From a virus: DNA of 64,000 bases. Under the pieces are notes generated by a model, which was not told the origin of the DNA, searched no databases, and saw only the letters and a list, made by a program, of their open reading frames with translations. A program made the position numbers and the translations under genes. The stretch is from the IMG/VR virus record IMGVR_UViG_3300033565_000007, positions 33 to 64,032 of that record; one strand, 5' to 3'. Positions 91 to 64,000 of the stretch are shown here, one piece after another (the first letter of the stretch is position 1; each line of letters begins with the position of its first letter).

Positions 91-345
91 AGCTCCTGGC
101 GCCACTACCTGAAGCTCGGCGACGTCGAAGGCGCGAAGGCGGTCCTTGACGAGAACAAGGACAAGATCGGGAAGTATCACGCCTTCCAGGTCGTGCAGCG
201 CAGCGAGGCGGCGATCAACGCGCAGATTCAGCGCATCGAGGCCGACAAGACGATGAGCGCGGAGAAGAAGCGGGAAGCGCTGGATAAGCTCTACCAGCAG
301 AAGGACAAGATGGCGCGGCTACTCGCCCCCACTGGGCTCAAATAG
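1..345 (+). CDS. C-terminal end of the giant polyvalent virion protein (continues from 54029 through the circular junction)
   Basis: Same frame as the ORF starting at 54029 once 63911 is mapped to 1; stop TAG at 343-345. Confidence 0.9.
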   Translation, partial: VGNFAETLPSNSSRYVTQMYEQSKAIEEAYSSWRHYLKLGDVEGAKAVLDENKDKIGKYHAFQVVQRSEAAINAQIQRIEADKTMSAEKKREALDKLYQQKDKMARLLAPTGLK

Positions 346-25262: not shown

Positions 25263-25269
25263 GGGCGCC

Positions 25270-26689: not shown

Positions 26690-26690
26690 A

Positions 26691-27010: not shown

Positions 27011-27024
27011 CCAAGGAGATCCAG

Positions 27025-27267: not shown

Positions 27268-27269
27268 GC

Positions 27270-41008: not shown

Positions 41009-43786
41009 ATGGCCGCGCCGGTCGTAGACTCCTATTCGTGCGCATCGGGCGGTGTCATCAACGCCGGGAGGTATGGTGAAGATCCGCCGGTCGATCCGGG
41101 CGAGTATGTCGGGGTGATCGCCCTGTCCGCACAAGGCGCAGCCGATCCGTTTGCTGCGAGTCCTCCGGGACAATTGCCTACGATGCCGAATGCGCCGGTT
41201 GGTGGAACGTTCTCCTGTAAGCATCAATACTGGACATATGACTCCACCCACGGCGATATGGTAGTGAGCGGGGGAGATTCTTGGGGTAACTCGAGATCTG
41301 ACGTTTTCTCTTACACGCCGGCAACGAGGACTTTTGCCAAGATCCTACGTCAAGATGAGTGGGGAGCGCAGAACCTTGATCGTTCGATTACTCAGTTTAA
41401 TCCAACTGATCTTATCGTTACGAATGGCTCAGGGTATGTAAATGGCATTTACCCTGATGCGGGCGGCGCTACCGGAGTTCCCTTGGCTGGGGGAACGGGA
41501 ACGGGCGCGACGGTGTGGATAGAGGTAATTGGGGGCGCCGCTTACATAAAAAATCACGAATTCGGCTATTTGGTAACTTCTGGGTATGGCTATACAGTCG
41601 GAGATGTGCTCACAGTGAACAATGCACATCTTGGTGGAAGTGGTTCTGGTTTCTCCATAACCGTGACCGCTGTAAGCGACGCTGGAACGCCATCTTCAGT
41701 TGTCGGGCCAATCGGACGGTGTTTGCCGGGCCTGTGCCATGACGCTAACCGAAATGTTATCTGGTTCGAGGGCGGTACGACTCGTCCGAGCATTTGGGCA
41801 AGTAACGCGAAGGTTGGCGGTCTGTGGGCGCTCGATCGGGAGACTACGCCTCTTCCAACTTGGCACCGCCAAGGGCCTGGATGCCAAGAGGCTACTGGCA
41901 GAATAGCAGACCAATATTCAGGCGGCCTATTCTACGATCCGGTCGGGGATGCGCTATACCGCATGTGCTACGGGAAGTTGTATAAATATTCCCTCGGAGG
42001 CATAGAGATTGACGGGGTAAGTCGCGACAACTGGCAAGAGTTCGACCAGCCGCACGGAACAGGTGGGTACAGTTACCCCGCCTACGATAGTCGTCGCAGA
42101 CGTATCGTGCATCTGAATGGTGATTGCAGCGCGACCTACGCCTGGGACTGCGCTACAGATACCGATGTTCTTCTGAATGACACTCCTTTCCCGTTTAGTA
42201 CCGATGTCCATCTTGCCTATGATTCGGCATTAGATCGCGTAATTCTTTGGGCGGCGGCCGATAACCGGTTAAATAACGCGCCTGACTGGCAAGGCGCGAG
42301 AATTCACTGGATGTATTGGATGGACCCGGAAGGTAACTGGACACAGTTCACGCCGGAAGGGGATCAACTTATTGAGCCCGATGTTGTTTATCCGCAATTC
42401 TCCGGTGCTTACGATGGCAATGAGAAATGCCTAGTCGCGCAGACGGGGAATCAAAACAATGCTGCCTATGATTATGTTTCCCCGCCTCGCGCGAACATCT
42501 ACCATCTGTATTCGCCTTCGTCTGCGGCGCCGGCCCTGAACCTCGTCGGCACGAACTGGACGCCGAACCGCGACGCTTCCCATAACGTGCTCGCCAGCGA
42601 TTGGGCGGCGCTGCCGCTGAACACATGGGTTGCAGTGGTTGGAGAGACTCTGAGCGGCGTCATTGAGACGCCGCATTACCTTGGTGGTTTCGGCGACTCG
42701 GCGAATAGCATTACGGGTGCGTGGAACGGCGCCGCGTGGGACTACATCAACCAGCGGATGTACATCGCTGGCGGCGGCCACAGCGACAGTTCCGCATGCG
42801 AGACCGGCATCTACATGGTGGACGCGGCGACGGCTAAGTTTTCCCGCGTGCGCGACCGCGACCCGATGTCGGTGGTGCAGGGTTGGGACGGGAATGCCCA
42901 CGCGCTCGTGCCGGCGGAAAAGTGGACGGGCTTCAACGTCCCGTTGCAAAACGGCAACCCAAGTGCAGTGCATACCTTCAACGGCCTCGTCTGGGTGCCA
43001 CCGGAGGTACTCGGCAACACCAACGGCGGGCTGTTTTATCCGGGCGAAGCGAAAGCCGTCTGGAACTTCGACACGCACGCATGGACGGCGACGCACTGGT
43101 TCAACGCAGACAGTACGAGTTACAGCTCGGCGAACGTTTGCGCCTACATCGACGGCTCGAAAATCTACGGCCCAAGAGGGGCGTGGTATCACTGGCGCTT
43201 TGACCTTACGCAGACCGAGATTACGCAGTGGGGCGCGAGCTCGTTCGGTGAGCAAAACCTCAACATCGCCAACCAAGATATTGGGATGTTCGACACCAGC
43301 GGGGCGATTTGGAACTGGATGCGCGAGCGCCGCGAAGAGTTTTGCATCATCTCCAGCACCGCGCGGACAAGGACCAAGTACGGCTTGGCGCTCGACGCGG
43401 GCGCCACGAACTGGACGCCCTACAGCGACGCGATCACGCTGACTTCGAGCGACGGCTCCCACGCCTACTTCGGCGACGACAACAACTACGATCTCAATCC
43501 TGCCGACCCCCAACCCGATGAGTCGCTCGCGCAACCGGGCATGGCTTACGACCACGCGACCGAGACGTTATACATTCAAGCCAATAAGCCGGGCGACTTT
43601 CTCTACAAGATCACCGGCCTCTCCGGTTCAACGTGGACGGTGCAACGGATATCCGGAACGGGCGCGCTGTACTGGAGCAAGCACGGCAACTACGGCCGGA
43701 TGCGACTGGCGACGCTTGGCGGCAAGAAGATCCTGTTGCGTGTAACGCACAGGGATGATCCGCTACAAGTCATGAGGATAAGCTGA
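41009..43786 (+). CDS. Receptor-binding/tailspike-like protein with two propeller-like modules
   Basis: 925 aa, Trp/Gly/Tyr-rich; YD...+GG kelch-like motifs twice; Gly-rich TNGSGY..GGTGTGA..GYTVGDVLT insert. Confidence 0.7.
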   Translation: MAAPVVDSYSCASGGVINAGRYGEDPPVDPGEYVGVIALSAQGAADPFAASPPGQLPTMPNAPVGGTFSCKHQYWTYDSTHGDMVVSGGDSWGNSRSDVFSYTPATRTFAKILRQDEWGAQNLDRSITQFNPTDLIVTNGSGYVNGIYPDAGGATGVPLAGGTGTGATVWIEVIGGAAYIKNHEFGYLVTSGYGYTVGDVLTVNNAHLGGSGSGFSITVTAVSDAGTPSSVVGPIGRCLPGLCHDANRNVIWFEGGTTRPSIWASNAKVGGLWALDRETTPLPTWHRQGPGCQEATGRIADQYSGGLFYDPVGDALYRMCYGKLYKYSLGGIEIDGVSRDNWQEFDQPHGTGGYSYPAYDSRRRRIVHLNGDCSATYAWDCATDTDVLLNDTPFPFSTDVHLAYDSALDRVILWAAADNRLNNAPDWQGARIHWMYWMDPEGNWTQFTPEGDQLIEPDVVYPQFSGAYDGNEKCLVAQTGNQNNAAYDYVSPPRANIYHLYSPSSAAPALNLVGTNWTPNRDASHNVLASDWAALPLNTWVAVVGETLSGVIETPHYLGGFGDSANSITGAWNGAAWDYINQRMYIAGGGHSDSSACETGIYMVDAATAKFSRVRDRDPMSVVQGWDGNAHALVPAEKWTGFNVPLQNGNPSAVHTFNGLVWVPPEVLGNTNGGLFYPGEAKAVWNFDTHAWTATHWFNADSTSYSSANVCAYIDGSKIYGPRGAWYHWRFDLTQTEITQWGASSFGEQNLNIANQDIGMFDTSGAIWNWMRERREEFCIISSTARTRTKYGLALDAGATNWTPYSDAITLTSSDGSHAYFGDDNNYDLNPADPQPDESLAQPGMAYDHATETLYIQANKPGDFLYKITGLSGSTWTVQRISGTGALYWSKHGNYGRMRLATLGGKKILLRVTHRDDPLQVMRIS

Positions 43787-45153
43787 TGGCAACGGTCAAT
43801 GCAAAAACGATAGGCCCCGGCGGCGACTACGCGACCCTCACCGCTTGGTTTGCGGCCTGTCCGCCCGACCTGACGGCCGCCGACGCTTCCGGCTATATCT
43901 ACCGAGGGCAAGTGCTGAACACCGAGCTTGTCTCCGCTGCGGGCCTCGATATCACCGGCATCGCAGGGGCCGACGCGACGCACTACATCGAACTGACGGC
44001 GGCCAGCGGCTGTTCGTTCGCCGACCACGCGAACAAGGCGACGAATCCGCTGCGTTACAACGCCGCGGTCGGCGCGGCGCTGAATTGCACGGCTGGAAAC
44101 CCAACGGTCGGAATTGCTTGTACGGTTCCATATACCCGTATTACTCGGCTTCAGATTCAGAATAGCGAAGTCGGGAGTCACGCGGCGACCACGTTGCAGA
44201 TGGAAGGAAACAATTCGCTGCTTGATGGTTGCATTGTGGAAGGCGGGGCAACAACCACACCCCTTACAGTCTGTTCAGGATCTGGTTCGAAGTTCTCAAA
44301 TTCGGTCTTTATTTATAAGCATTCGAGTTGGAATGATGCGCGCGGACTGGTGGCGTTACGGTCTGGGGCGGAGGCGCATAACCTTACCCTGATTGCTTCG
44401 ACGATCGCGCAACCTTATGGATTTAGTTATGAATATACGCCGATTCTGGTCCAGAATTGCTATGTTGGAAATTGTACGGACCCGTTTATAGGCGCAATCA
44501 CTACCACAGACCATTGTTTTACCGATAAGGCCACCCCGCCGACGGGTTGGACAACCGCCCCTTACAGCACGGCGACCTTTGCGAGCATTACTGCGGCTTC
44601 CATGGACGTGCGCCTGGCCGCCGGATCGGCGCTCATCAACGCCGGCGCGGACGACACGGGTGCGCAGACCGACATCATCGGCACCGCCCGCCCTGCGGGC
44701 GCTTTCGATGTCGGTGCCTGGGAGGTTCCTGCCTCAGCCACCAACGGCACGGCGACCGGAACGCTGGCCGCAAGCTCGCTGACCGCGCCGACAGGCAGCG
44801 CGACGGGCGGCAACGGCACGACAACCGGCAACGCGACGGGGGCGCTCGCTGCGACGACGCTCACTGCGCCGGCAGGCGCTGCATCGGGAACGACCGTGAC
44901 CGCCGGAACGATCACGATCTCGGCGATCAAGGATTTGACGACCGGCGGACTGCGGGCCAACGAGACCGGCATCACGGTCATCGTCAATGACGTGTCGACC
45001 GGCGCACTCGTCGCGAAGATCACTGGCGAGACGACGGATGCCTCGGGCGACTGCGCCTTCTCGCATGCGTCGATCGTGATTGGAACCGAGTACCGCTGCA
45101 CGACGATCCTGTCCGACGGGTCCGAAGGCACCTGGAAATACACGGCGGCCTAA
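43786..45153 (+). CDS. Tail protein with beta-helix-like core and GxATG repeats
   Basis: IGPGGDYATLTAW N-terminus; DI.GTARP.GAFDVGAWE choice-of-anchor-like motif. Confidence 0.7.
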   Translation: MATVNAKTIGPGGDYATLTAWFAACPPDLTAADASGYIYRGQVLNTELVSAAGLDITGIAGADATHYIELTAASGCSFADHANKATNPLRYNAAVGAALNCTAGNPTVGIACTVPYTRITRLQIQNSEVGSHAATTLQMEGNNSLLDGCIVEGGATTTPLTVCSGSGSKFSNSVFIYKHSSWNDARGLVALRSGAEAHNLTLIASTIAQPYGFSYEYTPILVQNCYVGNCTDPFIGAITTTDHCFTDKATPPTGWTTAPYSTATFASITAASMDVRLAAGSALINAGADDTGAQTDIIGTARPAGAFDVGAWEVPASATNGTATGTLAASSLTAPTGSATGGNGTTTGNATGALAATTLTAPAGAASGTTVTAGTITISAIKDLTTGGLRANETGITVIVNDVSTGALVAKITGETTDASGDCAFSHASIVIGTEYRCTTILSDGSEGTWKYTAA

Positions 45154-45843
45154 ATGAGCCAGCGCGTAACCTCGACGCCGTTGTTTGGCGGGTCTCATGT
45201 CGTCTCGCTTTGGGGCGGGCTCGGCATCCCGGGCAGCGCAATACCGACGACGGGCGATGCCGGCGGATCGCCGCTCGCCAATGACGAAATCGTCTCGACG
45301 TCCGAATACCGCCTCGAGGTCGTGACGCTGCCGACGGCCGGCACGCTCCAGTTTTTCCCCGACACGAGTTTCCAATTTTCCGGCGCGCCGGATGGGACCT
45401 ATTCCTTCGAGTACGAAGGGTTCGAGGACGGCATCAGCTACGGCTCTGTAACGGATCCGCTCAATGTCGGCGTCACCAATGGAACGGCGACCGGTGCGCC
45501 GCATTCGATTTCGCTCACGCCGCCTGCGGGCGCCGCTTCGAGCACAACCGGCAGCACGAGCGGAACGGGTACTGGAACGATCGCCGCCCTGTCTCTCACT
45601 GCACCGATCGGCGCGGCCAGCGGGACGGGAGCGGTCGTCAACGGAACGGGAACCGGCGCAATCGCTGCCGTCGGACTCATTGCCCCGCTCGGCGGGGCGT
45701 CCGGAACCATGACCGAGGGCAACGGGGCCGCCGTGGGCGACTTCGCCGCGCTGACGCTGTCGGCGCCTGCCGGGTCGGCCGTAGGCATCTGGTCGGTCGG
45801 CATTGTCCGGCACACCAAGGTCGGATCGATCACGCGCCACTAA
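45154..45843 (+). CDS. Tail-associated protein with Gly/Ala/Thr repeats
   Basis: GT.TG.IAA.SLTAP.GAASG repeats shared with the previous gene. Confidence 0.7.
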   Translation: MSQRVTSTPLFGGSHVVSLWGGLGIPGSAIPTTGDAGGSPLANDEIVSTSEYRLEVVTLPTAGTLQFFPDTSFQFSGAPDGTYSFEYEGFEDGISYGSVTDPLNVGVTNGTATGAPHSISLTPPAGAASSTTGSTSGTGTGTIAALSLTAPIGAASGTGAVVNGTGTGAIAAVGLIAPLGGASGTMTEGNGAAVGDFAALTLSAPAGSAVGIWSVGIVRHTKVGSITRH

Positions 45844-50549: not shown

Positions 50550-51032
50550 ATGAATTTCGAGCTCATGAAAGACCGCGAGTTGATGCTCTACGCCTTCAAG
50601 GGCGACCAGGCGGCCGTCGATTACGTGTTGATGGTCGTTCGTGTTGCCGACGTCTGGGACAACCTCATCGATCGCGACAAACCGGTCAGCAACGAAGAGA
50701 TCAATGACGCGTTCTGGAAAATGTCGGTCGAGATTCCGCGGAACGCGTTTTACCGGGCGCACATTGACGACCTTCTGCCGGTAATGGCGACCGGCATCCT
50801 CAACTGGATGGCTGCCAATTCGATCGAGCGTGACCGCACCGAGCGGCGGGCGATCGAGATTGCGCACGTCATTCGCTACAGCATCGCTGACATTTGCCTG
50901 TTGGCGGCGACGTTGTGCGGCGGTCTTCAATGGGCAGAGCACGTCGCCGCAGAATTGCGACTGCGGTCGCAGAGAAGCGACTTGAACGAATACATCACCA
51001 GTCTTCAAGGAGTTGAACATGCGAGCAAATAG
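50550..51032 (+). CDS. Conserved helical protein with (D/H)xWD(D/N)LID motif
   Basis: ADVWDNLIDRD...NAFY..H; upstream of the ejection proteins. Confidence 0.8.
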   Translation: MNFELMKDRELMLYAFKGDQAAVDYVLMVVRVADVWDNLIDRDKPVSNEEINDAFWKMSVEIPRNAFYRAHIDDLLPVMATGILNWMAANSIERDRTERRAIEIAHVIRYSIADICLLAATLCGGLQWAEHVAAELRLRSQRSDLNEYITSLQGVEHASK

Positions 51033-52125
51033 GAAATTGATTGCGATCCGGTCGGCAGATGTTGCCGATGACCTGATCAGCCAGAAGCATGCTTGCTTCT
51101 TCGACATGGGTAACGACGCTCCCGATCCGCCTGACTACACCGCGACCGCCGCTGCGTCCGAGAAGTCCGCGCAGCTTGGCAAGGAGCTCGGCGACGCCCA
51201 ACTGGCCGAGGCACGCCGCCAGTACGATGAGAACATAGCGGTCGTCAAGCCGATTGTCGACGCCCAGACCGGTTTGATGAAGCAGAGCATCGATCAGGGC
51301 GACGAACAGTACAACTACATGAAAGACACCTTCCGGCCCGTCGAGGCTGGATTGGTCAAGGATGCGACCGACTTCAGCACCGAGGGCGCGAAAGAAAAAT
51401 ATGCGCGCACCGCGGCGGCCGACCTTGAACAGCAGCAGTCAAACGAGGCGGCCCAGACCGACCGGGCGCTGTCGGCGGCGGGCGTCAATCCGAATTCGGC
51501 CAAGTTTGTCGGACTGAAGCGGATTCAGGAAATCAGCAACGCAGCCGCCCGCGCCGGCGCGGTGACCAATGCTCGGGATAAGGCCGACAGCCTGTCGTTC
51601 GCAAAGCGCATGGACGTCGCCGGACTTTCCCGCAACCTCACTGGCGCCTCGCTAGGCTCCTACGGCCTTGCACTCAGCGCCGGCAACTCGGCCACGAGTA
51701 ACCAGATGGCTCCCGGGCAGGCACTGACGAGCGGCGTAGCGCAGGGCACCGGCACGATCATGCAAGGGCAGGGGCAGAAGGTGCAAGGCTTGACCAGCAT
51801 CATGAACGCCCAGACGAGCTACGCGAACAGCAATCAGCCGGCCGACTATGGCGGCGCACTCATTGGGGCGCTTGGAGGCATCGGCTCGGCGGCGCTACTC
51901 AGTTCGGATCGTCGGCTGAAAGAGAACATCGAGTTTGTCGGGATCGACGAAGGCACGAATCTTCCGTTGTACGAGTTCAACTACATCGGAAAGCCGGGCA
52001 CGAGGTTCCGCGGCGTCATGGCCGATGAAGTGATCCATCCGTTCCCTGACGCCGTCACTTTCGACAGCGAAGGATTCGCGTCAGTGAATTACGAAAAACT
52101 CGGCATCGAAATGCGTGAGGTTTGA
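51019..52125 (+). CDS. Internal virion/ejection protein with C-terminal peptidase S74-type chaperone domain
   Basis: APDPPDY near the N-terminus; SSDRRLKENI...LYEFNY...GVMADEV...VNY. Confidence 0.82.
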   Translation: MRANRKLIAIRSADVADDLISQKHACFFDMGNDAPDPPDYTATAAASEKSAQLGKELGDAQLAEARRQYDENIAVVKPIVDAQTGLMKQSIDQGDEQYNYMKDTFRPVEAGLVKDATDFSTEGAKEKYARTAAADLEQQQSNEAAQTDRALSAAGVNPNSAKFVGLKRIQEISNAAARAGAVTNARDKADSLSFAKRMDVAGLSRNLTGASLGSYGLALSAGNSATSNQMAPGQALTSGVAQGTGTIMQGQGQKVQGLTSIMNAQTSYANSNQPADYGGALIGALGGIGSAALLSSDRRLKENIEFVGIDEGTNLPLYEFNYIGKPGTRFRGVMADEVIHPFPDAVTFDSEGFASVNYEKLGIEMREV

Positions 52126-52126
52126 T

Positions 52127-54004
52127 ATGGGACACAGCGGAAGAAACAACCAAGCGCTCGACGCGCTGCATGCGTTCGGCATTGCCTATGGCATGACCAA
52201 AGGCGTGATGCTGGATAAAGACCTGCAGAAGGCCGGCGATGTGAAGCCGGAGACCGTCGACAATGTCCAGGTGGCCGACAACACCCCGAACACCGAAGGC
52301 ATGGTGCAGGATTCGGAAACTGGTCGTTACGTGCCGAAGCTGTTCGATGCCGACGGCAACATGACCGAGGCCGGCCTCACGCAGACCAACGGCGTCGAAG
52401 GCGGCGAGGCGAGTCCCGGCGTAGATCCGACCTTCAAGAGCACGACGACGCGCAGCTACCGCTTGGGCGACACCGAGCAGGCCGCCCCGTTCTCGCAGGA
52501 ACAACTCGACGCCCGGCGCTACCGCAACCAGGCCGACGTCTATTCGAAGCACGGCCTGCCGGAACGGGCTGCGTCGATTCAGGGATTGGCGAAGGCGCGC
52601 GAGGAAGAGGCGACGATGAAGGATATCCGCGCCGGCGGCGTCGCCGGGCTGAAGAACGGCAAGGACATGCGCGCCGAAGAGAAGAACTTCGCGATCACCA
52701 AGGGGATGTACGAGAGCGCGCTGAAACTCAACCGACCGGACCTCGCGGCGGGCTACTACGCGCAAATGAACAAGGCGCGCGACGAACTGCTCGCGCACGC
52801 CAACGACCGGGCAGACAAGGTCTATCGCGCCACCGGCGGCAATATCAGCGGCTTCGTCGACACCTACAACAAGTATGTCGCCGACGGCAATACGATCGAC
52901 GCATTCCAGCGCAACGATGACGGCTCGCACACTTTCAGCATCAACGACGGCACCGGCAAGACCCGCGACATCAATGTCCCGAAGGAAAAGATCAGCGAAT
53001 ACCTGCTGGCGCTGCGTGACCCGAAGCGTATCGCCGAACTCGAGCAGCGTCGCGCCGAGATCCTGTTCAAGGCGAGCGCCGACGCGCAGGAAGCGCTGAA
53101 CAAGCCGGTCGCCGTCGGTAGGGATCAGACGCTCGTCGTGCCAAGCACCGGCCAGACCTTCGCGCCGGGCGCCAACCGCGGCTTCGACCCGAAGGAATCG
53201 GGATCCGTCCTCGACGACATCAGCAAGATTTTCGTCAGCAAATACGGACAGGCCGATCCGAACAATCCGCTCGCACCGAAGGGGCTTAGCGACGAAGGGC
53301 TCGCCAAGGCCTCGCTCGCGCATCGCCTGTTCATGGAAAACCGCAATCTGCCGCCGGCTGCCGTCGCCGAAATCGCCGACAAAGGCACGCTCGGCGTCGC
53401 GACGGTCGAGATCGGCGGCCAGATGCACAAGGTTCCGGCCGTCCATTACAACGGCCGCGCCTTCCTGCTGGGCGGATCGAACGCCGGTATGCCGACGCCC
53501 GCGCCGCAACCTACCGCCGCGCCGGGGCCGACCGGTCTCGGAACGCGCAGCGTCAGCGGCAAGATTGGCGACTCGGGCTTGCAGCGGGTCGAACCGTCAA
53601 AAAAAGCTGAGCCGGTCGCGTTCAATGCGCCAGAACTCGACCGGCACGCCAGCGAAGTGGAACAGGCGCTCGGACTGCCTTCGAACCTGCTTCTCGCCGT
53701 CAAGAACGTCGGCGAGCGCTCGAACAACGATCAGGTGAGCCCCAAGGGCGCCGCCGGCGTGATGCAGTTCATGCCGGCCACGGCTCGCCAGTACGGGGTC
53801 GATCCGACCAATCCGCAGCAGGCGATCGAAGGCGCCGGGCGCTACCTCGTCGATCTCATCAAGCAGTACGGCGGCAACGTCGCCGCGGCCGTCGCGCACT
53901 ACAACGGCGGATCTTCGCAGGGGCAACTCGTGGCGGCCGGGCAACAGCCGTCCTACCCCGAAACACGCGCCTATGTCGCGCGCGTGATGAAGTCCCTCGC
54001 GTAA
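52127..54004 (+). CDS. Internal virion protein with C-terminal lytic transglycosylase
   Basis: GERS...SPKGAAGVMQFMPATA...AHYNGG. Confidence 0.9.
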   Translation: MGHSGRNNQALDALHAFGIAYGMTKGVMLDKDLQKAGDVKPETVDNVQVADNTPNTEGMVQDSETGRYVPKLFDADGNMTEAGLTQTNGVEGGEASPGVDPTFKSTTTRSYRLGDTEQAAPFSQEQLDARRYRNQADVYSKHGLPERAASIQGLAKAREEEATMKDIRAGGVAGLKNGKDMRAEEKNFAITKGMYESALKLNRPDLAAGYYAQMNKARDELLAHANDRADKVYRATGGNISGFVDTYNKYVADGNTIDAFQRNDDGSHTFSINDGTGKTRDINVPKEKISEYLLALRDPKRIAELEQRRAEILFKASADAQEALNKPVAVGRDQTLVVPSTGQTFAPGANRGFDPKESGSVLDDISKIFVSKYGQADPNNPLAPKGLSDEGLAKASLAHRLFMENRNLPPAAVAEIADKGTLGVATVEIGGQMHKVPAVHYNGRAFLLGGSNAGMPTPAPQPTAAPGPTGLGTRSVSGKIGDSGLQRVEPSKKAEPVAFNAPELDRHASEVEQALGLPSNLLLAVKNVGERSNNDQVSPKGAAGVMQFMPATARQYGVDPTNPQQAIEGAGRYLVDLIKQYGGNVAAAVAHYNGGSSQGQLVAAGQQPSYPETRAYVARVMKSLA

Positions 54005-54028: not shown

Positions 54029-57000
54029 ATGGCTCAAGGTCTTGAGCGGATTCCGCTCGCCGTCGATTCCGACTTCCAGTATCAGCCGGTGCGCGCGAAC
54101 TTTCCCGAGCAGAAGCAGCCGGAGATCAAGTTCATCGGCTTCGAAGCCGATCAGGCTCCGGTCGAAGCGGTTCCTGCTACGAAGATGGGCCTTGGCGACA
54201 CGCTTTCCTCGCTCGGCCGCAACGTCTGGGACGCGGTCGTCTACCACACGCCGGCGGCGGTCGCCGCGGCGATCGAAGGCGACGATCCGTTCGCGACGAA
54301 GGACTGGAAAGACGCGCTAATCGAACGCGCACGCAAGCGGGAGCAGGAAACGAGCAAGGTTGGCGACGACAAGGTCAAGACGGCGATTCCCGGCGTCAGC
54401 GCGCAGGACATCAACTCGGTCGGTCCGAGCCTTGGCTTCTCGGCCGTCGGAGCTGGTACCGGACTTGCCGTCGGCGTACCGGCCGCGGCAGCGGGCAGCG
54501 TCGTCGCGCCTGGCGTAGGAACGGCAGCAGGTTACTCGGCAGGCATGGCCGCGTCCGGCACGGCCGCCTACCGCATGGCGACGAATCAGTTCATCCGCGA
54601 CCTGCACGAGAGCGCGAACGAGGAAAGCATCAAGACGACCGGCAAGCCGATCAGCGACCAGGCGTTCAAGGACAAGCAGGCGCAGCTCGCCGACGTCATC
54701 AAGTCCTATGGCCTCTGGGAAGCGGTACCGGAAGCCGCCGGCAATGCGCTGTCGTTCGGTATTCTGACGGCGCCGGTGAAGGGCGCGATCGGCAAGCTGT
54801 TCGGCAAGAACATCGCGACGCGATTCGCCGGCAAGGCCGGTTCGCTCTATGGCGAGGAACTCGCGACCGAGACCGCGACGCAGATGGGCCAGCACAATGC
54901 CGAGGTCGACGCCGGGCTCAGCAAGGATCCGAAGCGCGACTTCGCGTCAGCGTCCGACTGGGCCCAGTCGGCAAAGGAAGTTGCCGCGCCGACGATTCTG
55001 CAAACCACGCTGATGGCTGGGGGCTTCAAGGCAGCACACGGTCTCGCGAACCGCGGCGCCAAAGCCGAACCCAGCGTCGGCGCGCCGCCGGCATCTTCGG
55101 ATCAGCCGACTCAACCGACTCCGCTGGAAGGCGAGTTCATCGGCGCCGAGCCGCCGGGCGGACGGCCGCAACTCCAAACGCCGGCGATCGACGGCGAATT
55201 TTCGACCGTCGGCGAACTGCCGCGCCTCACGCTACCGGCGCCGGCCGACGGCGGGCCCACCCCGCGCGAGCTCGCCGCGGCGCGCGGACTCCTGAATCAC
55301 CACTCCCGGCCATCCCCTGAACTGCTCCAGCGCACGCTCGGCTACGACGCCGACATGGCTGCGCGCCTCTATGCGCACTGGCTCGAGACCGACAAGAAAC
55401 AGTCGCCCATTCCCGATTCGACCACTCAACCGCAAGGAGAAAGCCTTGGCCCTACGTCCGATCAAGCCGTCGAAACGCAAACGCAACGAGCGGAAGAAGA
55501 ACAAGCCCCAGTAGTCGCGCCGCCGACGACGCTTGATGTTCTCGCGCACGGCGCGGCGACCTCGCCGTTCAACGCGCACCCGCAGCCCAGCGAGGCCCAG
55601 CGCGAGGCGGGAAATTATCGCAAGGGACACGTCTCGATTCAGGGGCTCGACGTCTCAATCGAGAATCCTGCGGGGTCCGTGCGCTCTGGCGTCGACGCCG
55701 ACGGCAAGCCGTGGCAGACCGAACTGCAGCACCACTATGGCTACCTGCGCGGCACGGTCGGGCGCGACAAGGATCATCTTGACGTATTCATCGGACCGAA
55801 CGCCGAGGCGGCCGACACGGCGTACGTGATCGACCAGATCAACCCGAAGACCGGGAAGTTCGACGAGCACAAGGTCCTTCTCGGCGCGGCGTCGAAACAG
55901 GAAGCGAGCGAGATTTACCACGCGAACTATCAGGCGGGCTGGAATGGCCTTGGCGCCATTACGGCAATGCCGATGGCCGAATTCAAGAACTGGATCCGCA
56001 GCGGCGATACCAAGGCGCCGCTCGCCTATACCGACCAGACCGCGCGCGCCGCGACGCCGGCGGTCGAAACAATTGCCGGAACGCCGGCAAGTGAGCTGCC
56101 GGATGCCTCGCTGCAGCAACTCGCGAAGAGCAGTCAGCCGGCCGCCGAGAAAGCCAAGCGCGAACTCGCAAGGCGGTCTGCACCGATCATGCGACGGGAC
56201 GATCTTGTCGGCGCCATCATGCGCGTCACCGGCGGCAACGGCATCGCGGCGAGCATGAGCGAAACCCTGATCGGCGAGAAGGCGAATCGGGTCGGCAACC
56301 TGCGCGGACTCTTTACACAGCGTGGACAGATGGACATGGGCGACCTCGCGATGCTGCTGCGCGAGGAAGAGGGCTATGACGTGCGCGACGCCGCCCAGCT
56401 CGAGGACATGATTCGCGAGGCTGCGGCCGGTAACGTCCCGATCAGCATGGCGCGCCAGGAGCGGGAAAAAGCCGGGAACGAAGAGAAGAAATACCGCGCT
56501 GACATCAGGCAGCGGGCAGCGGCTTTCGGGATCAAGACGGTCGGCAAAAAACACGACGATCTCGAGCGCGAAGTGCTTGCGCGCGAGGCCCAGGAAGCGC
56601 AAGATGAAGCGGATGCCGAGCGGGCCGCGATCCAGGCGGCAGACTCGGGCGTCAGCGATGACGACATCAACGCGATGCTGCAAATCGCCGCGGAGGACGA
56701 GCATGAAAGTGAAATCAATCAGCGACAATACGCTTCAGAAGATGCTCAAGCCGATCGGGGAAGAGGGCGCGCCGACAACGCTGACGCCGTCCCAGCGAAT
56801 CAGCCGAGTGAAGAACAACCGGTTCGTGCACGCGCTGGCGAAACTGCCGCAGCAGAAGCGCGGTCTCGTGTTGAAGGGCGTGGCGCAGAAGCGCGGCCTG
56901 ATCTAGCCCTCGCCGGACAGACGAACGAAGAGGCGGCTGCCCAGGCCGCCCAGCAGGACCAGCAGGAAACCACCCCCAGCAAGCAGCAAGCCGACACGGA

Positions 57001-60000
57001 GCGCGACGCCGTTCCGTTCTCCCTTGCCGTCGAGAGTCAGCCGAAACCGGTCGGCGTGCAGACCGGATTGTTCACCGCGGATGGACGGGTCAGCGCCGAG
57101 GCGAAGCCTGTTCGCCCCTTTAACTCCGCGCAAGAGCGCGAGGATGCCATCTATCGCATGCAGGTCATGGCGCGCGATGCCGGGATCGAGTACGCCGAGA
57201 ACACCATAAAGGACGCCATGGAGTTCGGCGCGTCCGAGCAGGAGATGACGACGGCGATCGGCAAAGGTGAGGAAGCCATTCATGCGCTCGCGAACGAGGC
57301 GATGCGCCGCAACAACGGACTCAAGCAAGGATTCGGAAAAGGCAACAACGACCACCTGATCAAGCGCACGCCATTGACGGAACAGGAGCGGAAAGTCTCC
57401 TCGCTGGCGGGCGGGCAGGGTCTATACAATCTGCCGCTAGATCAGCAAGCCAGCCTATTGAAGAAGGCGAAAGCCAAGAGTATCGATGCCTTCGAGTCGA
57501 TGCCTATCTCGGAACGTCAAAAGATCGTTGAGCAATGGCTTGCCGAGCAAGAGCAGACCGCTAAATCCAGGACAGAAGACGCCGTCGCCCAAGCTAACGC
57601 GATCGAGCCGGCCAAGTCCGAGACGCCAATCGAACCCATCACCACGAAACAGAAAGCGCAGGGCATCGGCCAGCCGTCTCAGGTGGCCGATTTCGGGGAA
57701 AAAATCGGCGGCGCGCGCAAGGATACCGCCGTGCCGCTTGGCCGGCGCACGACCTCTACCGCAAACGACGAGCGCCCGGGATGGATGCGTCGTTACCACG
57801 CCGTGCAGATCCTTCCCTCGTCCACGCGGCTGAACAAGCCGAACGTCGGCAAGTGGCAACTCGCGATCGAATCAGGCGGCGCGCGCGGGTCGGTGCGGCC
57901 GGTCTCGTCGAAGGTTTATGACACCGAACAGGAAGCGCTGGCCGCCATTCCGCTCGCCGAGGTTTCGCGTAATCACCGAGCCTATTCCTACGTCCGCGAC
58001 GGCGAAACGAAATGGGGCATCTTCCGCAACATCACTGATCGCAAACGCGCGCTCGTGAAGGGTGGATTCGCGACCTACGAGGACGCGATGAAAGCGATGG
58101 CGACCGACCCTGTCCCGATCATCGAGCACAAGTTCCAATTCCCTGAGCGGCCTTGGCTCGACCGCATCGAGCGTATCGGCCAAGAGCGCCGCACCGGCGA
58201 CGTCACGACGCAGATGTTCCAGGAGACTTTCGGTTTCCGCGGCGGCGAGTTCGGCAACTGGAATATGGGCGGCGACGGCCAGGCGGCATTGAACCATGCC
58301 TATGACGCGCTGCTCGACTTTGCTGAAATCCTCGGCGTGCCGCCCAAGGCGCTTTCGCTCAACGGCGAGCTCGCGATTGCCTTCGGCGCGCGCGGCACCG
58401 GCGGAAAGAATTCGGCGTCCGCGCATTACGAACCTGACCGTGCCGTTTTCAACCTGACCAAGATCAAGGGCGCCGGATCGCTCGCGCATGAATGGTGGCA
58501 TGCCGTCGATCACTATTTCGCCAAGAAGAGCGGGGTCAGGGACAGCAGCAGCGTCATCGCAGGCGGATTTTGGAGCAAGAGCGAAGTTCGTCCGGAACTG
58601 ATGGCGGCGATCAAGAAGGTAATCGACGTCATGAATTACGCCGAGAAATCGACGACGACCGACGCCGACTTGATTCGTGCCAATGCGCAGAAGCGCATGG
58701 ACGGCGCGCTCAAAGACCTCGACTACCGTCTCAACGACCTGCGCAAACCGTACTCGCCGAAGCGCGCCTACACCGCCGACGAGATCAAGAAATGGGATGC
58801 GCTCGTCGAGAAACTGCGCAGCGGCGAGGCGGGCGAAGAGGTCTATATCGAGAACCCAAGCAAGACGCGCGGCGCGATGCGCTTCATGGTCGGATCGAAC
58901 ATCCGCGACCTCAACGTCATCTACAAGGCGGCGACCGGCCGCAGTTTCCTGCGCCAGGACCCGGCGAGCGTCGGCCGGCAGATGGGTTGGACCGTCAAGG
59001 CCATTGCCGACAACAAAGCCAAGCTCGACGTCAAAGAGTCCGTCACCACGACGAGCAAGGGCCGCACCGAGTTCTACATCGAGGCCCGGGCGATCGACAA
59101 TTTCCGCGCCGGCGAATACTGGAGCAAGCCCGAGGAAATGGGCGCGCGCGCCTTCGAGTCCTACGTCTTCGACAAGCTGATCGGCGACCAGAAGCGCAGC
59201 GATTACCTGGTGTATGGCGTCGAGAACCGTTTCTACGCGCTGCTCGACATGAAGCCGTACCCGGAAGGTGAAGAACGCAAGACGATCAACGCTGCCTTCG
59301 ATCGCTTTTTCCAGACGATCGAGACCCGTGAAACCGAGAAGGGCGTCGCGATGGAGTCGCGCGCGGCAAGCCGCCAGACCGAGACGCCAGAGTTCAAGAA
59401 GTGGTTCGGCGACAGCAATGTCGCCGATGCTGAAGGTCGGCCGCTGATCGTCTATCGCGGCGAACACGGCGAGAGCGACGCGCAGTTTCACAGCAAATTG
59501 GGCAGCTTGTCCTTCGGCGACCGGGAAACGGCCAACACCTACGCGACCGACCCGAACGACCATCGCGACACGCCGCACGCGCCGCGCGTGTTTCCGGTCT
59601 ATCTCCGAATCAAAAATCCGTTCGTCGGCAACAAGTACGGCGACCCCTTCCTCGACTTCGACGAGGCCGCGCGCCAACTCGGCCATGATGAAGCCGTGCG
59701 CATCTTCAAGAAGTTTGCCGATCACGTCGAGAACACCGGCAATTGGATGGAAGAAATCAACCCGGACGGGCAGTTCAAGTCGGCGGGCGAATTTCTCGAC
59801 AAGCATCCGAACCGCGCCAGCGAGCTATATTTCAATCTCTATCCGTTCGTGGATGACGCGAGCGAAGTAGCAAAGCTCAAGGCCAAGGGTTTTGACGGCG
59901 CGATTTACGACGGATCAGGCGAAAACGCCGGGGAAACCGAGTATCGAATATTTGACGAGTCGCAGGCAAAATCCGCTATCGGCAACAACGGCAACTTCGA

Positions 60001-63000
60001 CGCCAGCAATTCAGACATCCGCGAATCCGTTTCCGCGCCCGCCGACAAGCCGCCCGCCGCCGCGACCGAATCCGTCAAGGCGATCCGCGCGATCGTCGAC
60101 CAATTCAAGAAGCTATTCAAAGGCGCGGTCGCGCTCAATATCCGCGTCGTCGGATCCACCGAGGAAATTCCCGCACAGTTTCGCCCGAGCCCCTACGCCG
60201 AAGGCGTCTTCCACGACGATGCCGGCCTGATCTACTTGGTCGCCGACAACCTGATGACGGACGGCAAGGCGAACACCCCACGTGCGTTCCAGGTTCTGAT
60301 GCACGAGGCCATCGGACACTTCGGTTTCGCGAAGATGATGGGCGACCGGTTCAAGGGCATTCTCAAGCACGTCCTGCAGGTCGCGCGCGACGCCGGCGTC
60401 AAGGAAGATATCTACGGTCCCGGCGACAAGGAATATGCGACCGTCGAGGCGGTGCGCCTGCGCTATCCCGAAGCTAGCGACGAGGACATCGCGCAAGAGG
60501 TCATCGCGCGCATGGCCGAGTCCGGCGACACGAGTTCGAAGTTCGGCTACGTCCGGGCGGTGATTCGCCAGTGGCTGCGCGACATGGCGCGAGCGCTGGG
60601 TATCACCGTCTCGCTGACGACCGAAGAACTGAACGACCTCGTCAAACTCGCATCGGCCTACATGCGCGAAGGGAAGAACCTCGAAACGTCGTCCGAGCCG
60701 TCGGGTCTTGTGGCGGCGTCGCGGAAGGGTGAGATTGTGCGCGACCGAGAGAATATCGACACCGCGACGCGCCGGATGGATCGGTTCGTTGCTGAATTCG
60801 AATCCGGCCGGCTGAAGGATTCCGACACGCAAGTGCTCGGGACGACGCCGACGGTGCTACAGGCGCTAGGCGCGAAAGACCTGTCGCTGCAGATCGACGG
60901 CGCGACGGTTCGAAAAGTCTTGACTGGCAAGCACAGCCACGACATAACGGCTGCGATGCTGCGCCAACTACCGAACGGCCTCTACAATCCATTGATGGTT
61001 TTTGATAGCGCCACCGGCGCAGGAAAGGTACTCGTCACCGAACTTCAATCCGTCAATGGTAAGCCGGTCGTGGCCGTTGTCCATTTCGAGAAGCGACATG
61101 GCGGCATGATCGTGAATGACGTTGCGAGCGTGCACGAAAAGAGCAGCGCTGAACGCTCTCTGGCATCGTGGATTGATGCCGGACTGCTTCGGTACGTCAG
61201 AAATAAAAATGACCTTTCGGAGTCCGCTACTCGTCATCCGTTGCCTGCGAGCATAGCGAACCTTGTGAAAGGTCAGGAAGCGAACATACTCCAGGAGGCA
61301 GACATTGTCAATGCCTATGGGGCCAAGTACAGTCAAAAAGGACGCCAGGCCAGTGAGGTACGCGAACTATTGTCGCGCAGCTATAACCTTGCGTCCTCAA
61401 ACAAAAACATAGCCCATCCCTCTGAGGTTGTCAATTTGAGCGCCGGGGGCAGTGCGCGGTTCTCTCCCGGTGGCATGGAATCTCGCAGCCACGTCGCTGG
61501 CGACTCCGGCCGCCAGTACAGCGCCGACCAGATCAACACCTTCCGCAAGGTCGGCCGCGAAGTCGAGACGCCGACGGTCAAAGAGCGCATTGCCGGCTTG
61601 TGGCAGGACATCGGCAAGAAGCTGCAGCAGGGCATTGCTGACCAGTTCGCGCCGCTGAAGGAGCTCGGCGGAGACGCCTACCTGCTCTCGCGCATGTCGC
61701 GCGGCGCCGACGGCGCGCTCGAGGCGCTGCTGATGTACGGCCGCGTCTTCCTGCGCGACGGCGTCTATGACGTCGACGTCAAGGACGGCGGCGTGATCGA
61801 CAAGCTCCTGCGCCCGCTCGGCGCCGAAGCCGACGACTTCATCTGGTGGGTCGCCGGCAACCGTGCGGACATCCTGACGAAGGAGTCCGCGGCCGCGCGC
61901 GCCGAGGGAGCCAGGCTGCTCAACCAGGCCGATGTGCTCGAGCAGCAGGCGCGCCAGGCCGACGCCGACGCGAAGCAGATCCTGCAGCAGGCCGGCAACC
62001 TCTCCAAGGGCATGCTGGGTCATCAATACGGCCAGAAGGCGAACGCGCAGCAGGCCGAGGATCTGTTGCGCGAAGCCAAGCGCCTGCGCAAGGCCGCGAT
62101 CGAGGCGCGCACCAAAGGCAACGAGCTCAAGAATGTCAGCCGCGAGAACCTGATGGACGCGAAGGACATCGCCGGACTGAAGGCGCTCGGTACCGGGCAA
62201 CTCGGATTCGACTTCACACTGAGTAATGGCCAGAAGACGCGCGACCGCGCGAAGGCCTATGCCGACGCGAACGCGACGCTGCAGGCGTTCAACAAGTCCG
62301 TCATGGATATGGCCGAGCAATCCGGGCTGATCGACGGCGCCGAGCGCGCGATCTGGGAGCGCGACTTCTACGTCCCGTTCTACCGCGAGAGCGAAGAGGG
62401 CGACAAGCCGAAGTTCCCGAACGTGAAGTCCGGGCTCGTCCGGCAGAAGGCCTTCGACCGGCTGAAGGGCGGCACCGACAAGCTCAATCACGATTTGCTC
62501 GCCAACACGCTGATGAACTGGTCGCACATCCTCAACGCCGCGGCGAAGAACCGCGCGGCGAAGGCGTCTCTGGAGGCGGCCGAACAGATCGGCGCGGCGA
62601 CGCGCCTGCCCGGCAATGAGAAGGGCGCCGTCTCCTTCCGCGATGGCGGCAAAGAGGTCCATTACCAGGTCGACGACCCGTTCATCCTCGACGCCGTCAC
62701 CGCGCTCGAGTTCTCCGGTTTCTCCGGCCCGGCAATGCAGGTCATGGGCGCCTTCAAGCGCTGGCTGACGATGGGCGTCACCGCCAACCCGGCCTTCAAG
62801 ATCCGCAACCTGATCCGCGACTCGATCAGCGCGATCGGCCAGGGCGAGCTCTCCTACAACCCGATCAAGAATATCGTTCAGGGCTACAAGGGCACGAACA
62901 AGAAATCGCAGACCTACGCCTCGCTGCTCGCCGGCGGCGGCATCATCCGCTTCGGCACGATGATCGAGGGCGCACGCGCGAACCACGTTCGCCGCCTCGT

Positions 63001-64000
63001 CGAATCCGGCGTTGACCAGAGCACGATCATCGACAGCGAATCGAAGCTGAAAGCGCTGTGGAAGCGCAAGATCATGCCGATCCTCGATGCCTACAACGAA
63101 CTCGGCGACCGCTCCGAAGGCATCAACCGCGCCGCGCTGTACAAGCAGCTGCGCGCCAAGGGCGTGAGCCACGCCGAGGCGAGCTACGCCGCGCGCGACC
63201 TGCTCGACTTTTCGATGGGCGGCACGTCGTCGGCGATCCGCTTCCTGACGCAGGTCGTCCCGTTCGCGAACGCGCGGATTCAGGGCATCTACAAGCTCGG
63301 CCGCGCCGCCAAGGACAACCCGCGGCGCATGGGCTATGTCGTGGGCGCCGTCGCGCTCGCCAGCCTGGCGCTGCTCGCCGCCTACCACGACGACGACGAC
63401 TGGAAGAAGCGCGAGGACTGGGATCGCGACAATTACTGGTGGTTCAAGATCGGCGGCATCGCCTACCGGATTCCGAAACCCTTCGAAATCGGGACGATCG
63501 GCACGCTCGCCGAGCGCTCGGCCGAACTCCTGTTCGACAAGGAAATGGACGGTCAGCGTTTCGGCAAGCGCCTCGGCTTCATGGTCTCGAGCACGTTCGC
63601 GATGAACCCGGTCCCGCAACTCTTCAAGCCGTTGGTCGATCTCTACGCGAATACCGACAGTTTTACCGGCCGGCCGATCGAGACGATGGGTATGGAGAAG
63701 ATGCAGCCCAAGGACCGTTTCACGGCGCGCACGAGCGAGGCGGCGAAACTCGTCGGCAAAGCCGGCGTCCTGTCGCCGGTGCAAGTCGACCATCTGATCC
63801 GCGGCTATTTTGGCTGGCTGGGCACCGCCTCGGTGTCGGCGGTCGATCAGGTACTCAGGCTAGGCGACGATACGCCGCGGCCCGCCATGGCGCTGCGCGA
63901 TGCCTTCCTCGTCGGGAATTTCGCCGAGACCCTGCCTTCGAACAGCAGTCGCTATGTGACGCAGATGTACGAGCAGTCGAAGGCGATCGAGGAGGCCTAC
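54029..64000 (+). CDS. Giant polyvalent internal virion protein (about 3,408 aa including 1-345); absent from the ORF track because it runs off the window
   Basis: ATG at 54029. Sampled translations in the same frame give InPase-like, FGEKIGGARKD (LPD5), HEWWH, LPD1, ART-like, HEAIGH, MuF-C/BECR-like and LPD38 segments. No plus-strand ORF ending in this frame is listed in the track. Confidence 0.9.
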   Translation, partial: MAQGLERIPLAVDSDFQYQPVRANFPEQKQPEIKFIGFEADQAPVEAVPATKMGLGDTLSSLGRNVWDAVVYHTPAAVAAAIEGDDPFATKDWKDALIERARKREQETSKVGDDKVKTAIPGVSAQDINSVGPSLGFSAVGAGTGLAVGVPAAAAGSVVAPGVGTAAGYSAGMAASGTAAYRMATNQFIRDLHESANEESIKTTGKPISDQAFKDKQAQLADVIKSYGLWEAVPEAAGNALSFGILTAPVKGAIGKLFGKNIATRFAGKAGSLYGEELATETATQMGQHNAEVDAGLSKDPKRDFASASDWAQSAKEVAAPTILQTTLMAGGFKAAHGLANRGAKAEPSVGAPPASSDQPTQPTPLEGEFIGAEPPGGRPQLQTPAIDGEFSTVGELPRLTLPAPADGGPTPRELAAARGLLNHHSRPSPELLQRTLGYDADMAARLYAHWLETDKKQSPIPDSTTQPQGESLGPTSDQAVETQTQRAEEEQAPVVAPPTTLDVLAHGAATSPFNAHPQPSEAQREAGNYRKGHVSIQGLDVSIENPAGSVRSGVDADGKPWQTELQHHYGYLRGTVGRDKDHLDVFIGPNAEAADTAYVIDQINPKTGKFDEHKVLLGAASKQEASEIYHANYQAGWNGLGAITAMPMAEFKNWIRSGDTKAPLAYTDQTARAATPAVETIAGTPASELPDASLQQLAKSSQPAAEKAKRELARRSAPIMRRDDLVGAIMRVTGGNGIAASMSETLIGEKANRVGNLRGLFTQRGQMDMGDLAMLLREEEGYDVRDAAQLEDMIREAAAGNVPISMARQEREKAGNEEKKYRADIRQRAAAFGIKTVGKKHDDLEREVLAREAQEAQDEADAERAAIQAADSGVSDDDINAMLQIAAEDEHESEINQRQYASEDAQADRGRGRADNADAVPANQPSEEQPVRARAGETAAAEARSRVEGRGAEARPDLALAGQTNEEAAAQAAQQDQQETTPSKQQADTERDAVPFSLAVESQPKPVGVQTGLFTADGRVSAEAKPVRPFNSAQEREDAIYRMQVMARDAGIEYAENTIKDAMEFGASEQEMTTAIGKGEEAIHALANEAMRRNNGLKQGFGKGNNDHLIKRTPLTEQERKVSSLAGGQGLYNLPLDQQASLLKKAKAKSIDAFESMPISERQKIVEQWLAEQEQTAKSRTEDAVAQANAIEPAKSETPIEPITTKQKAQGIGQPSQVADFGEKIGGARKDTAVPLGRRTTSTANDERPGWMRRYHAVQILPSSTRLNKPNVGKWQLAIESGGARGSVRPVSSKVYDTEQEALAAIPLAEVSRNHRAYSYVRDGETKWGIFRNITDRKRALVKGGFATYEDAMKAMATDPVPIIEHKFQFPERPWLDRIERIGQERRTGDVTTQMFQETFGFRGGEFGNWNMGGDGQAALNHAYDALLDFAEILGVPPKALSLNGELAIAFGARGTGGKNSASAHYEPDRAVFNLTKIKGAGSLAHEWWHAVDHYFAKKSGVRDSSSVIAGGFWSKSEVRPELMAAIKKVIDVMNYAEKSTTTDADLIRANAQKRMDGALKDLDYRLNDLRKPYSPKRAYTADEIKKWDALVEKLRSGEAGEEVYIENPSKTRGAMRFMVGSNIRDLNVIYKAATGRSFLRQDPASVGRQMGWTVKAIADNKAKLDVKESVTTTSKGRTEFYIEARAIDNFRAGEYWSKPEEMGARAFESYVFDKLIGDQKRSDYLVYGVENRFYALLDMKPYPEGEERKTINAAFDRFFQTIETRETEKGVAMESRAASRQTETPEFKKWFGDSNVADAEGRPLIVYRGEHGESDAQFHSKLGSLSFGDRETANTYATDPNDHRDTPHAPRVFPVYLRIKNPFVGNKYGDPFLDFDEAARQLGHDEAVRIFKKFADHVENTGNWMEEINPDGQFKSAGEFLDKHPNRASELYFNLYPFVDDASEVAKLKAKGFDGAIYDGSGENAGETEYRIFDESQAKSAIGNNGNFDASNSDIRESVSAPADKPPAAATESVKAIRAIVDQFKKLFKGAVALNIRVVGSTEEIPAQFRPSPYAEGVFHDDAGLIYLVADNLMTDGKANTPRAFQVLMHEAIGHFGFAKMMGDRFKGILKHVLQVARDAGVKEDIYGPGDKEYATVEAVRLRYPEASDEDIAQEVIARMAESGDTSSKFGYVRAVIRQWLRDMARALGITVSLTTEELNDLVKLASAYMREGKNLETSSEPSGLVAASRKGEIVRDRENIDTATRRMDRFVAEFESGRLKDSDTQVLGTTPTVLQALGAKDLSLQIDGATVRKVLTGKHSHDITAAMLRQLPNGLYNPLMVFDSATGAGKVLVTELQSVNGKPVVAVVHFEKRHGGMIVNDVASVHEKSSAERSLASWIDAGLLRYVRNKNDLSESATRHPLPASIANLVKGQEANILQEADIVNAYGAKYSQKGRQASEVRELLSRSYNLASSNKNIAHPSEVVNLSAGGSARFSPGGMESRSHVAGDSGRQYSADQINTFRKVGREVETPTVKERIAGLWQDIGKKLQQGIADQFAPLKELGGDAYLLSRMSRGADGALEALLMYGRVFLRDGVYDVDVKDGGVIDKLLRPLGAEADDFIWWVAGNRADILTKESAAARAEGARLLNQADVLEQQARQADADAKQILQQAGNLSKGMLGHQYGQKANAQQAEDLLREAKRLRKAAIEARTKGNELKNVSRENLMDAKDIAGLKALGTGQLGFDFTLSNGQKTRDRAKAYADANATLQAFNKSVMDMAEQSGLIDGAERAIWERDFYVPFYRESEEGDKPKFPNVKSGLVRQKAFDRLKGGTDKLNHDLLANTLMNWSHILNAAAKNRAAKASLEAAEQIGAATRLPGNEKGAVSFRDGGKEVHYQVDDPFILDAVTALEFSGFSGPAMQVMGAFKRWLTMGVTANPAFKIRNLIRDSISAIGQGELSYNPIKNIVQGYKGTNKKSQTYASLLAGGGIIRFGTMIEGARANHVRRLVESGVDQSTIIDSESKLKALWKRKIMPILDAYNELGDRSEGINRAALYKQLRAKGVSHAEASYAARDLLDFSMGGTSSAIRFLTQVVPFANARIQGIYKLGRAAKDNPRRMGYVVGAVALASLALLAAYHDDDDWKKREDWDRDNYWWFKIGGIAYRIPKPFEIGTIGTLAERSAELLFDKEMDGQRFGKRLGFMVSSTFAMNPVPQLFKPLVDLYANTDSFTGRPIETMGMEKMQPKDRFTARTSEAAKLVGKAGVLSPVQVDHLIRGYFGWLGTASVSAVDQVLRLGDDTPRPAMALRDAFLVGNFAETLPSNSSRYVTQMYEQSKAIEEAY
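63911..64000. repeat. Terminal direct repeat, copy 2
   Basis: Identical to 1-90 (gtcgggaatttcgccgag...gaggaggcctac). Confidence 0.97.

Follow-up and report, generated by a model that had tools for sequence, protein, structure and literature searches.

What is the role of a phage protein whose gene takes up one sixth of the genome and which strings a series of effector-type domains along a single chain? The question is raised by IMG/VR virus record IMGVR_UViG_3300033565_000007, of which a window of 64,000 nucleotides (nt), positions 33 to 64,032 of the record, was analysed here. The giant gene starts at position 54029 of this window and encodes 3,408 amino acids (aa). Its product is probably a giant ejection (pilot) protein, made of an N-terminal module, swappable cargo and a cysteine-free chassis of ~900 aa at the C-terminus. 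From its gene position, its homologues and its cysteine depletion, we infer that the protein is packaged in the head and ejected into the host with the DNA; ejection is supported because the gene occupies an ejection-protein slot, has a homologue in Stx phages and encodes no cysteine.

A giant gene and its C-terminal chassis

The open reading frame (ORF) list and the translation give an open frame that runs, without a stop, from the ATG at 54029 on the plus strand to the end of the window at 64000. The contig measures 64,037 nt and its first and last 127 nt are identical; this exact terminal overlap indicates a circle of 63,910 nt, and positions 1-90 of the window repeat 63911-64000. Across the circle junction the frame runs on at 91-345 and stops there, so the gene consists of a main part (54029..64000, aa 1-3324) and a continuation (91..345, aa 3325-3408 and the stop), both, like all the parts of the protein described below, on the plus strand. 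Gene calls that end at the contig end truncate it. An AAGGA motif lies 10 nt before the ATG, which is 25 nt past the stop of the preceding gene. A preliminary description of this DNA had given the protein about 3,400 aa, in agreement with the length obtained by joining the ends of the circle; no in-frame stop is present between 54029 and 63910, and the positions that it gave for three motifs, FGEKIGGARKD (57692, aa 1222), HEWWH (58487, aa 1487) and HEAIGH (60302, aa 2092), are exact.

The complete absence of cysteine from the 3,408 residues stands against a content of 0.87% in 20 other genes of the same phage (P ~1e-13). Depletion extends to the relatives, with 74 cysteines in 691,567 aa (0.011%) for a set of 240, of which 180 have none. 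Cysteine suppression has been described as a conserved feature of the ejection proteins of Schitoviridae, where it is tied to passage through the periplasm (DEV paper, PMC11445570). Phage N4 served as a control: gp50 (3,500 aa), gp51 and gp52 (14524-27524), whose ejection is established, are devoid of cysteine, in agreement with the DEV paper, as compared with 1.1-1.4% in the N4 replication proteins.

Among 5.8 billion proteins searched, 475 relatives were retrieved, with lengths of 1.8-5.1 thousand aa, and the best 120 were mapped on the query. Their distribution along the chain is highly uneven, since aa ~2500-2610 and 2700-3408 are found in 110-112 of the 120, and every other segment in 1-53. 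These shared regions delimit a conserved, mostly helical C-terminal chassis (aa ~2482-3408; 61472..64000 and 91..345). Within it, a membrane-type helix (aa 3101-3119, 63329..63385; hydropathy peak 1.91), followed by DDDDW...WDRDNYWW, immediately precedes LPD38 (aa 3122-3291, 63392..63901; Pfam E 2e-36). In 231 of the 240 relatives the helix is fixed ~313 aa from the C-terminus, and most of these proteins have no other segment of the kind; across the LPD38 family, the helix keeps its place and cysteine remains depleted. LPD38 can be read as the Pfam-named part of the ~900-aa chassis. When the chassis alone was used as query, 12,655 representative clusters were retrieved (3,293 at E <= 1e-30), and among the 150 matches listed, in proteins of 915-5,127 aa, it was always C-terminal. 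The AlphaFold model of the chassis is helical (pLDDT 70); in BFVD its fold recurs at the C-terminal end of many viral polyvalent proteins and in some stand-alone proteins of 500-950 aa. The same C-terminal fold is predicted for gp25 of Escherichia phage PTXU04 (Foldseek E 6e-30, TM 0.69), which is shorter (2,198 aa) and only 23% identical over the aligned part; knockdown of gp25 strongly reduces plating (PMC11879866).

Upstream of the chassis the picture is one of continuous exchange. None of the 120 best relatives has the same module set, and coverage of the query never exceeds 55%. The suggestion in the preliminary description that the domain string may be unique thus holds among these relatives, and it confers no distinction, being the normal state of a combinatorial family. 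Close relatives, ~80% identical in the chassis, bear different cargo, and the order of modules varies too, MuF-C and zincin 2 being inverted in relatives P0011 and P0019. Other cargo carried on the same chassis includes RadC, SNF2 helicase, DNA methylases, GGDEF, GH108 and SLT lysozymes, ddrB-ParB, phosphoribosyltransferase, GNAT, LPD3 and LPD37. By this comparison of sequences, everything upstream of the chassis is shuffled cargo. Prophage copies of the relatives are mostly found in Betaproteobacteria, and for this reason the host of the present phage is probably a betaproteobacterium. No near-identical DNA was found by megablast of the giant gene against the phage collection, and a search of IMG/VR with its least conserved stretch returned one distant relative (28% identity) and no near one.

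Homologues and the ejection-protein block

Giant proteins comparable to the one described here are encoded by the Stx podophages (Traversvirus), such as Sp5 ORF80/ECs1242 (2,793 aa) and phi24B gp47 (vb_24B_48). A Stx-phage protein of 2,794 aa and the present protein have three collinear segments in common (BLASTP identity 27-40%, E 2e-40 to 1e-14), namely zincin 1, LPD1, and zincin 2 with MuF-C, and both carry, in the same order, an LPD5-like segment, a zincin of the HExxHxxD type, LPD1, a zincin of the HExxxH type, MuF-C and LPD38. The Stx-phage giant has a single cysteine in 2,794 aa, its gene also ends the late operon beside the integration end (122 nt from the record end in SH2026Stx1), and the tail genes of the two phages are related. 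Unlike it, the protein studied here has ~1,200 extra N-terminal residues with InPase, an ADP-ribosyltransferase-like (ART) domain that separates LPD1 from zincin 2, and, within zincin 1, an insert of 210 aa, whereas LPD5 is full in the Stx-phage giant (152.6 bits) and partial here; the Stx phages infect E. coli, and the host here is probably a different one. The Sp5 giant is essential, its deletion mutant giving tailless heads (PMC5155283). The phi24B giant is abundant in virions by mass spectrometry and invisible in cryo-EM, and its authors propose that it is an ejection protein (preprint 10.64898/2026.04.10.717836).

In the phage collection, the best match is a 2,684-aa protein of Achromobacter phage CF418P1, which is 42% identical in the chassis (over 716 aa), 34% in the InPase region and 35% in zincin 2. 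This phage is temperate too, its nozzle gene is 38% identical and its giant has no cysteine; the protein carries LPD3 and is without zincin 1/LPD1, ART and MuF-C. In GenBank it is named 'putative portal' (5532-13586), and its Pfam families are InPase, LPD3 and LPD38, with no portal family among them; the name is probably a mis-annotation.

The virion RNA polymerase (vRNAP) of N4 and DEV (gp50/gp71) is likewise a giant (~3,400-3,500 aa) that is packaged and ejected; its domains are arranged as beads on a string, it contains a zincin-like region and it associates with membranes. The likeness is one of mode of working, not of family membership. An N4-type virion RNA polymerase was rejected as an identity for our protein, there being no polymerase family among its Pfam or PHROG matches, and no Schitoviridae appear among the listed tblastn matches or the ten commonest organism names.

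The protein was originally described as an injected polyvalent protein, and it agrees with the phage-type large polyvalent proteins of Iyer et al. 2017 (PMC5512222) in its domains, its zincins and its setting among virion genes. Such proteins unite several unrelated effector-type domains per chain and are encoded among virion genes, as here. Both variants of the zincin hub domains of that study (HExxH with Asp, and HExxxH) are present, as are its phage-only domains InPase and LPD38, and no difference in kind was seen. With InPase, ART-PolyVal, MuF_C, LPD1 and LPD38 all above their Pfam cut-offs, the chain holds the multiple effector domains by which polyvalent proteins are recognised.

The phage genome encodes small and large terminase, portal, major head protein, endolysin and integrase, and, judged from its genes, the phage is temperate and short-tailed, with a tail of the phi24B/GP4 type. 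Upstream of the giant gene lie genes for an SU10-type adaptor, a nozzle-type protein (phrog_511), tail fibres, a virion/ejection-like protein and an SLT protein. The giant gene is the last one of the late operon; it stops at 345, and the integrase occupies 1272-2471 of the minus strand. Over its full length, the nozzle protein shares 32-38% identity with those of Achromobacter CF418P1, Burkholderia JC1, Stx and Ralstonia phages, and others. Of the two genes just upstream of the giant, both on the plus strand, one (51013..52125) encodes a virion structural or DNA-ejection-like protein (phrog_8003, phrog_4287) that also contains a Peptidase_S74 chaperone domain, and the other (52115..54004) an internal-virion-type protein of 629 aa that lacks cysteine and has an SLT lytic transglycosylase domain at its C-terminus. 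The latter is likely, from its sequence, to be a co-ejected cell-wall enzyme comparable to gp20 of SU10. Further upstream in the structural block, three consecutive genes (41009-45843; 925, 455 and 229 aa) are without a Pfam or PHROG family, and the 925- and 455-aa proteins are rich in cysteine (12 and 11 residues), unlike those of the ejection block. A tape measure protein was also considered for the giant and rejected, the phage being short-tailed, with nozzle and adaptor genes.

Anatomy of the cargo

A Pfam profile search of the giant protein at curated cut-offs yielded the five families named above, bearing out four domains of the preliminary description (InPase, LPD1, MuF-C and LPD38). 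A relaxed search, at E up to 10, of aa 1-520, 660-1220, 1990-2310 and 2390-3130, and of the final 114 aa, turned up only noise besides a weak LPD5.

The N-terminal module (aa 1-350, 54029..55078), which contains a hydrophobic stretch rich in Gly and Ala (aa 137-163), is found in 15 of the 120 relatives, and every time at the N-terminus. It is followed by InPase, a domain like family I inorganic pyrophosphatases (aa 522-656, 55592..55996; Pfam E 6.5e-55, 185 bits). In 44 aligned sequences, conservation of its acidic residues reaches at least 90% for E545, D580 and D585 and at least 70% for D582; a pyrophosphatase-like domain with its metal-binding acidic residues kept is predicted. When the Protein Data Bank (PDB) was searched by sequence with the giant protein, the InPase part gave the sole match, to the same domain in a solved structure, where it forms the C-terminal end of a phage portal (PDB 9b41, E 2e-27). 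Pyrophosphate or nucleotide-like molecules are candidate substrates of InPase, and RNA that of MuF-C/PBECR (Iyer 2017, PMC5512222).

The region that follows (aa 660-1220, 56006..57688) is charged and of low complexity, and as far as aa 1018 it lies under a DarB-like PHROG match; aa 700-950 are common to 13 of the 120 relatives, and a protein atlas search with aa 660-1220 gave no usable match. LPD5 had been taken to begin at FGEKIGGARKD, and this assignment is rejected. The motif lies upstream of the expected LPD5 start and is missing from four relatives with full LPD5 matches, whose domains end ~87 aa before HExxH; because it is absent from these LPD5-bearing proteins, it belongs to an alternative upstream element, of a type seen in 10 of the 120 relatives. 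What is found at the LPD5 position is a weak, partial and sub-threshold match (aa ~1320-1400, 57986..58228) that scores 17.2 bits where the cut-off is 27 and takes in only profile positions 61-144.

The core of zincin 1 (58229..58528) contains H1487-E-W-W-H-x-x-D1494 and an upstream His at aa 1466, and both the HExxHxxD motif and this His are invariant in 32 aligned sequences. HExxH followed by Asp, with a preceding His, is a widespread phage-type variant of the peptidase, and HExxxH has also been described (Iyer et al. 2017, PMC5512222). A helical insert whose length varies among relatives (aa ~1539-1679, 58643..59065) separates the core from LPD1 (aa 1690-1767, 59096..59329; motif YW..PEE..ARAF, Pfam E 8e-22), the spacing between the zincin 1 site and LPD1 ranging from 64 to 246 aa among relatives. 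The two occur together in 49 of 52 cases among 120 relatives, and LPD1 never occurs alone. The AlphaFold model of aa 1220-1794 (mean pLDDT 84) has as its best matches in a VIA wide search anthrax lethal factor (Z 8.0), the Pro-Pro endopeptidases PPEP-2 and PPEP-3 (Z 7.9 and 7.8) and other zincins, and the aligned range takes in the HExxH helix and LPD1. Because of this co-occurrence, and because the alignment of the model spans both parts, HEWWH and LPD1 may be regarded as a single zincin split by the helical insert, with LPD1 as its C-terminal helices, a model that is supported, not proven. Zincin 2 (aa ~2010-2235, 60056..60733) is of the HExxxH type, with H2092-E-A-I-G-H, which is conserved in relatives and followed by an E..A..A helix motif. 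Neither HExxH site has a Pfam match. Where two zincins and a separate LPD1 had initially been listed, both zincin motifs are indeed conserved, while HEWWH and LPD1 appear to form one unit and HEAIGH is of the HExxxH type.

Between LPD1 and zincin 2 lies an ART-PolyVal domain (aa 1800-1990, 59426..59998; Pfam E 3.6e-11, 44.4 bits, cut-off 31.2), which was missing from the domain list of the preliminary description. Its key site reads IVYRGE, with R1810 in place of His, as opposed to VVYHGT in 34 of 37 relatives. Here the domain has G-S-L-S, in which the aromatic triplet of the relatives is replaced (the last position is Phe in 31 of 37, and the two before it are so conserved in 17-19). Either the site has turned into one of the Arg/Ser type, or the domain has decayed. 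The last cargo domain is MuF-C/PBECR, which is RNase-like (aa 2301-2393, 60929..61207; Pfam MuF_C E 1.6e-20).

Delivery model and rival roles

What was observed comprises the layout of the protein, its homologies, the place of its gene, the absence of cysteine and the conserved helix. On these observations we base a putative sequence of events, in which processing and every enzymatic activity are conditional, as are packaging and ejection. The protein would be packed into the capsid during assembly. At infection, following the model put forward for the N4 vRNAP, it would be expelled, largely unfolded, through the channel of portal and nozzle, before the DNA or with it, the neighbouring transglycosylase protein having first opened the cell wall. 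The chassis would insert in the inner membrane, or associate with it, and help to build a conduit for the DNA. The two zincins would possibly free the cargo domains, as Iyer et al. proposed (PMC5512222), and the cargo, active from the first minutes of infection, would have nucleotides, proteins and RNA of the host as its targets.

A number of points weigh against this model. The virion data come from E. coli phages, the present phage being known from its genes alone, and the homology to the experimentally studied proteins is partial: BLASTP gives no match between the C-terminal region and that of the Stx-phage giant, the two being linked there only by the Pfam LPD38 found in each. The tailless phenotype of the Sp5 mutant suits a role in assembly as well as an effector role. 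The membrane-type helix is a prediction from hydropathy; the chassis model has no Foldseek match in the PDB at E <= 0.001, and in VIA wide only a long helical hairpin (aa ~2620-2704), a generic arrangement, was matched. The zincin assignment combines conserved motifs with middling fold scores (Z about 8), and Foldseek against the PDB gave no match for the zincin 1 region. The ART domain departs from its family where conservation is strongest, and it may be inactive.

Other explanations of the giant gene differ widely in their plausibility. That the long frame is an artefact, whether a chance frame in GC-rich DNA, a fusion created by sequencing errors or a wrong join of the contig ends, can be set aside with near certainty: the DNA is 62% GC and prone to long spurious frames, many overlapping ORFs are listed and the gene spans the assembly junction, but protein-level relatives, all encoded by one gene, cover most of the length (the exception being aa ~1050-1200, found in 1-3 of the 120), the overlap at the junction is exact, and the sequence past it matches the C-termini of relatives. 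It is also very unlikely that the protein stays unpackaged in the cytoplasm of the producing cell, as a late factor for host takeover, phage exclusion or chaperoning of assembly. A late-operon gene in a phage known from its genes would be compatible with such a role, whereas the homologue is present in phi24B virions, the gene lies within the ejection-protein block, and a cysteine-free chain of this length, with the same pattern throughout the family, would be pointless for a protein resident in the cytoplasm.

The main rival is a structural or assembly protein, which would build or plug the tail and form a conduit across the envelope, its domains serving envelope penetration or self-maturation instead of attacking host targets in the cytoplasm. 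The tailless heads of the Sp5 mutant (PMC5155283) speak for it, and so does the phi24B preprint (10.64898/2026.04.10.717836), which proposes a conduit and a peptidase acting on the cell wall; moreover, family-wide conservation is seen only in the C-terminal chassis with its helix, and the minimal members, of 915-1,300 aa, are nearly cargo-free. We nevertheless regard this explanation as rather unlikely, since InPase, ART and PBECR have substrates of cytoplasmic type, namely nucleotides, NAD and RNA (Iyer 2017), the cargo and even its order are swapped freely among close relatives, as for accessory weapons and unlike structural parts, and the neighbouring gene already supplies an SLT enzyme dedicated to the cell wall. 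The structural and effector readings are compatible and do not exclude one another.

The ejection-protein model can be taken one step further, although here our proposal is tentative and, taken as a whole, more doubtful than likely. The chassis might be a general delivery vehicle for any cargo placed upstream of it, the cargo of the present phage being a counter-defence kit for the first minutes. InPase might then destroy a nucleotide signal or pyrophosphate, the ART with its Arg/Ser-type site hit a new target, and the RNase-like domain be delivered too, with the two zincins cutting the pieces free.

Much of this framework is already known. The class, its hub peptidases, the InPase and LPD domains and the proposed delivery are in Iyer 2017 (PMC5512222), essentiality and virion presence have been published for homologues, and the cysteine signature for N4-like phages. 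Specific to the present protein are its cargo set and the ART with unusual key residues; the placing of LPD1 within a zincin and of LPD38 within a ~900-aa chassis, and the family-wide extent of the helix and of the lack of cysteine, are small refinements. The protein is thus a good example of a described and very common kind (a class known from 2017, with >12,000 representative clusters) and opens no new question. Its gene is complete, the genome is circular and the split between chassis and cargo is clear, so that it can be used as a clean test case, with five recognisable enzyme-type domains, for the function of the cargo and for the exit of a 370-kDa chain from the capsid. Few phage proteins are as large, or as little tested, as the polyvalent proteins, which probably decide the first minutes of infection, ahead of phage gene expression.

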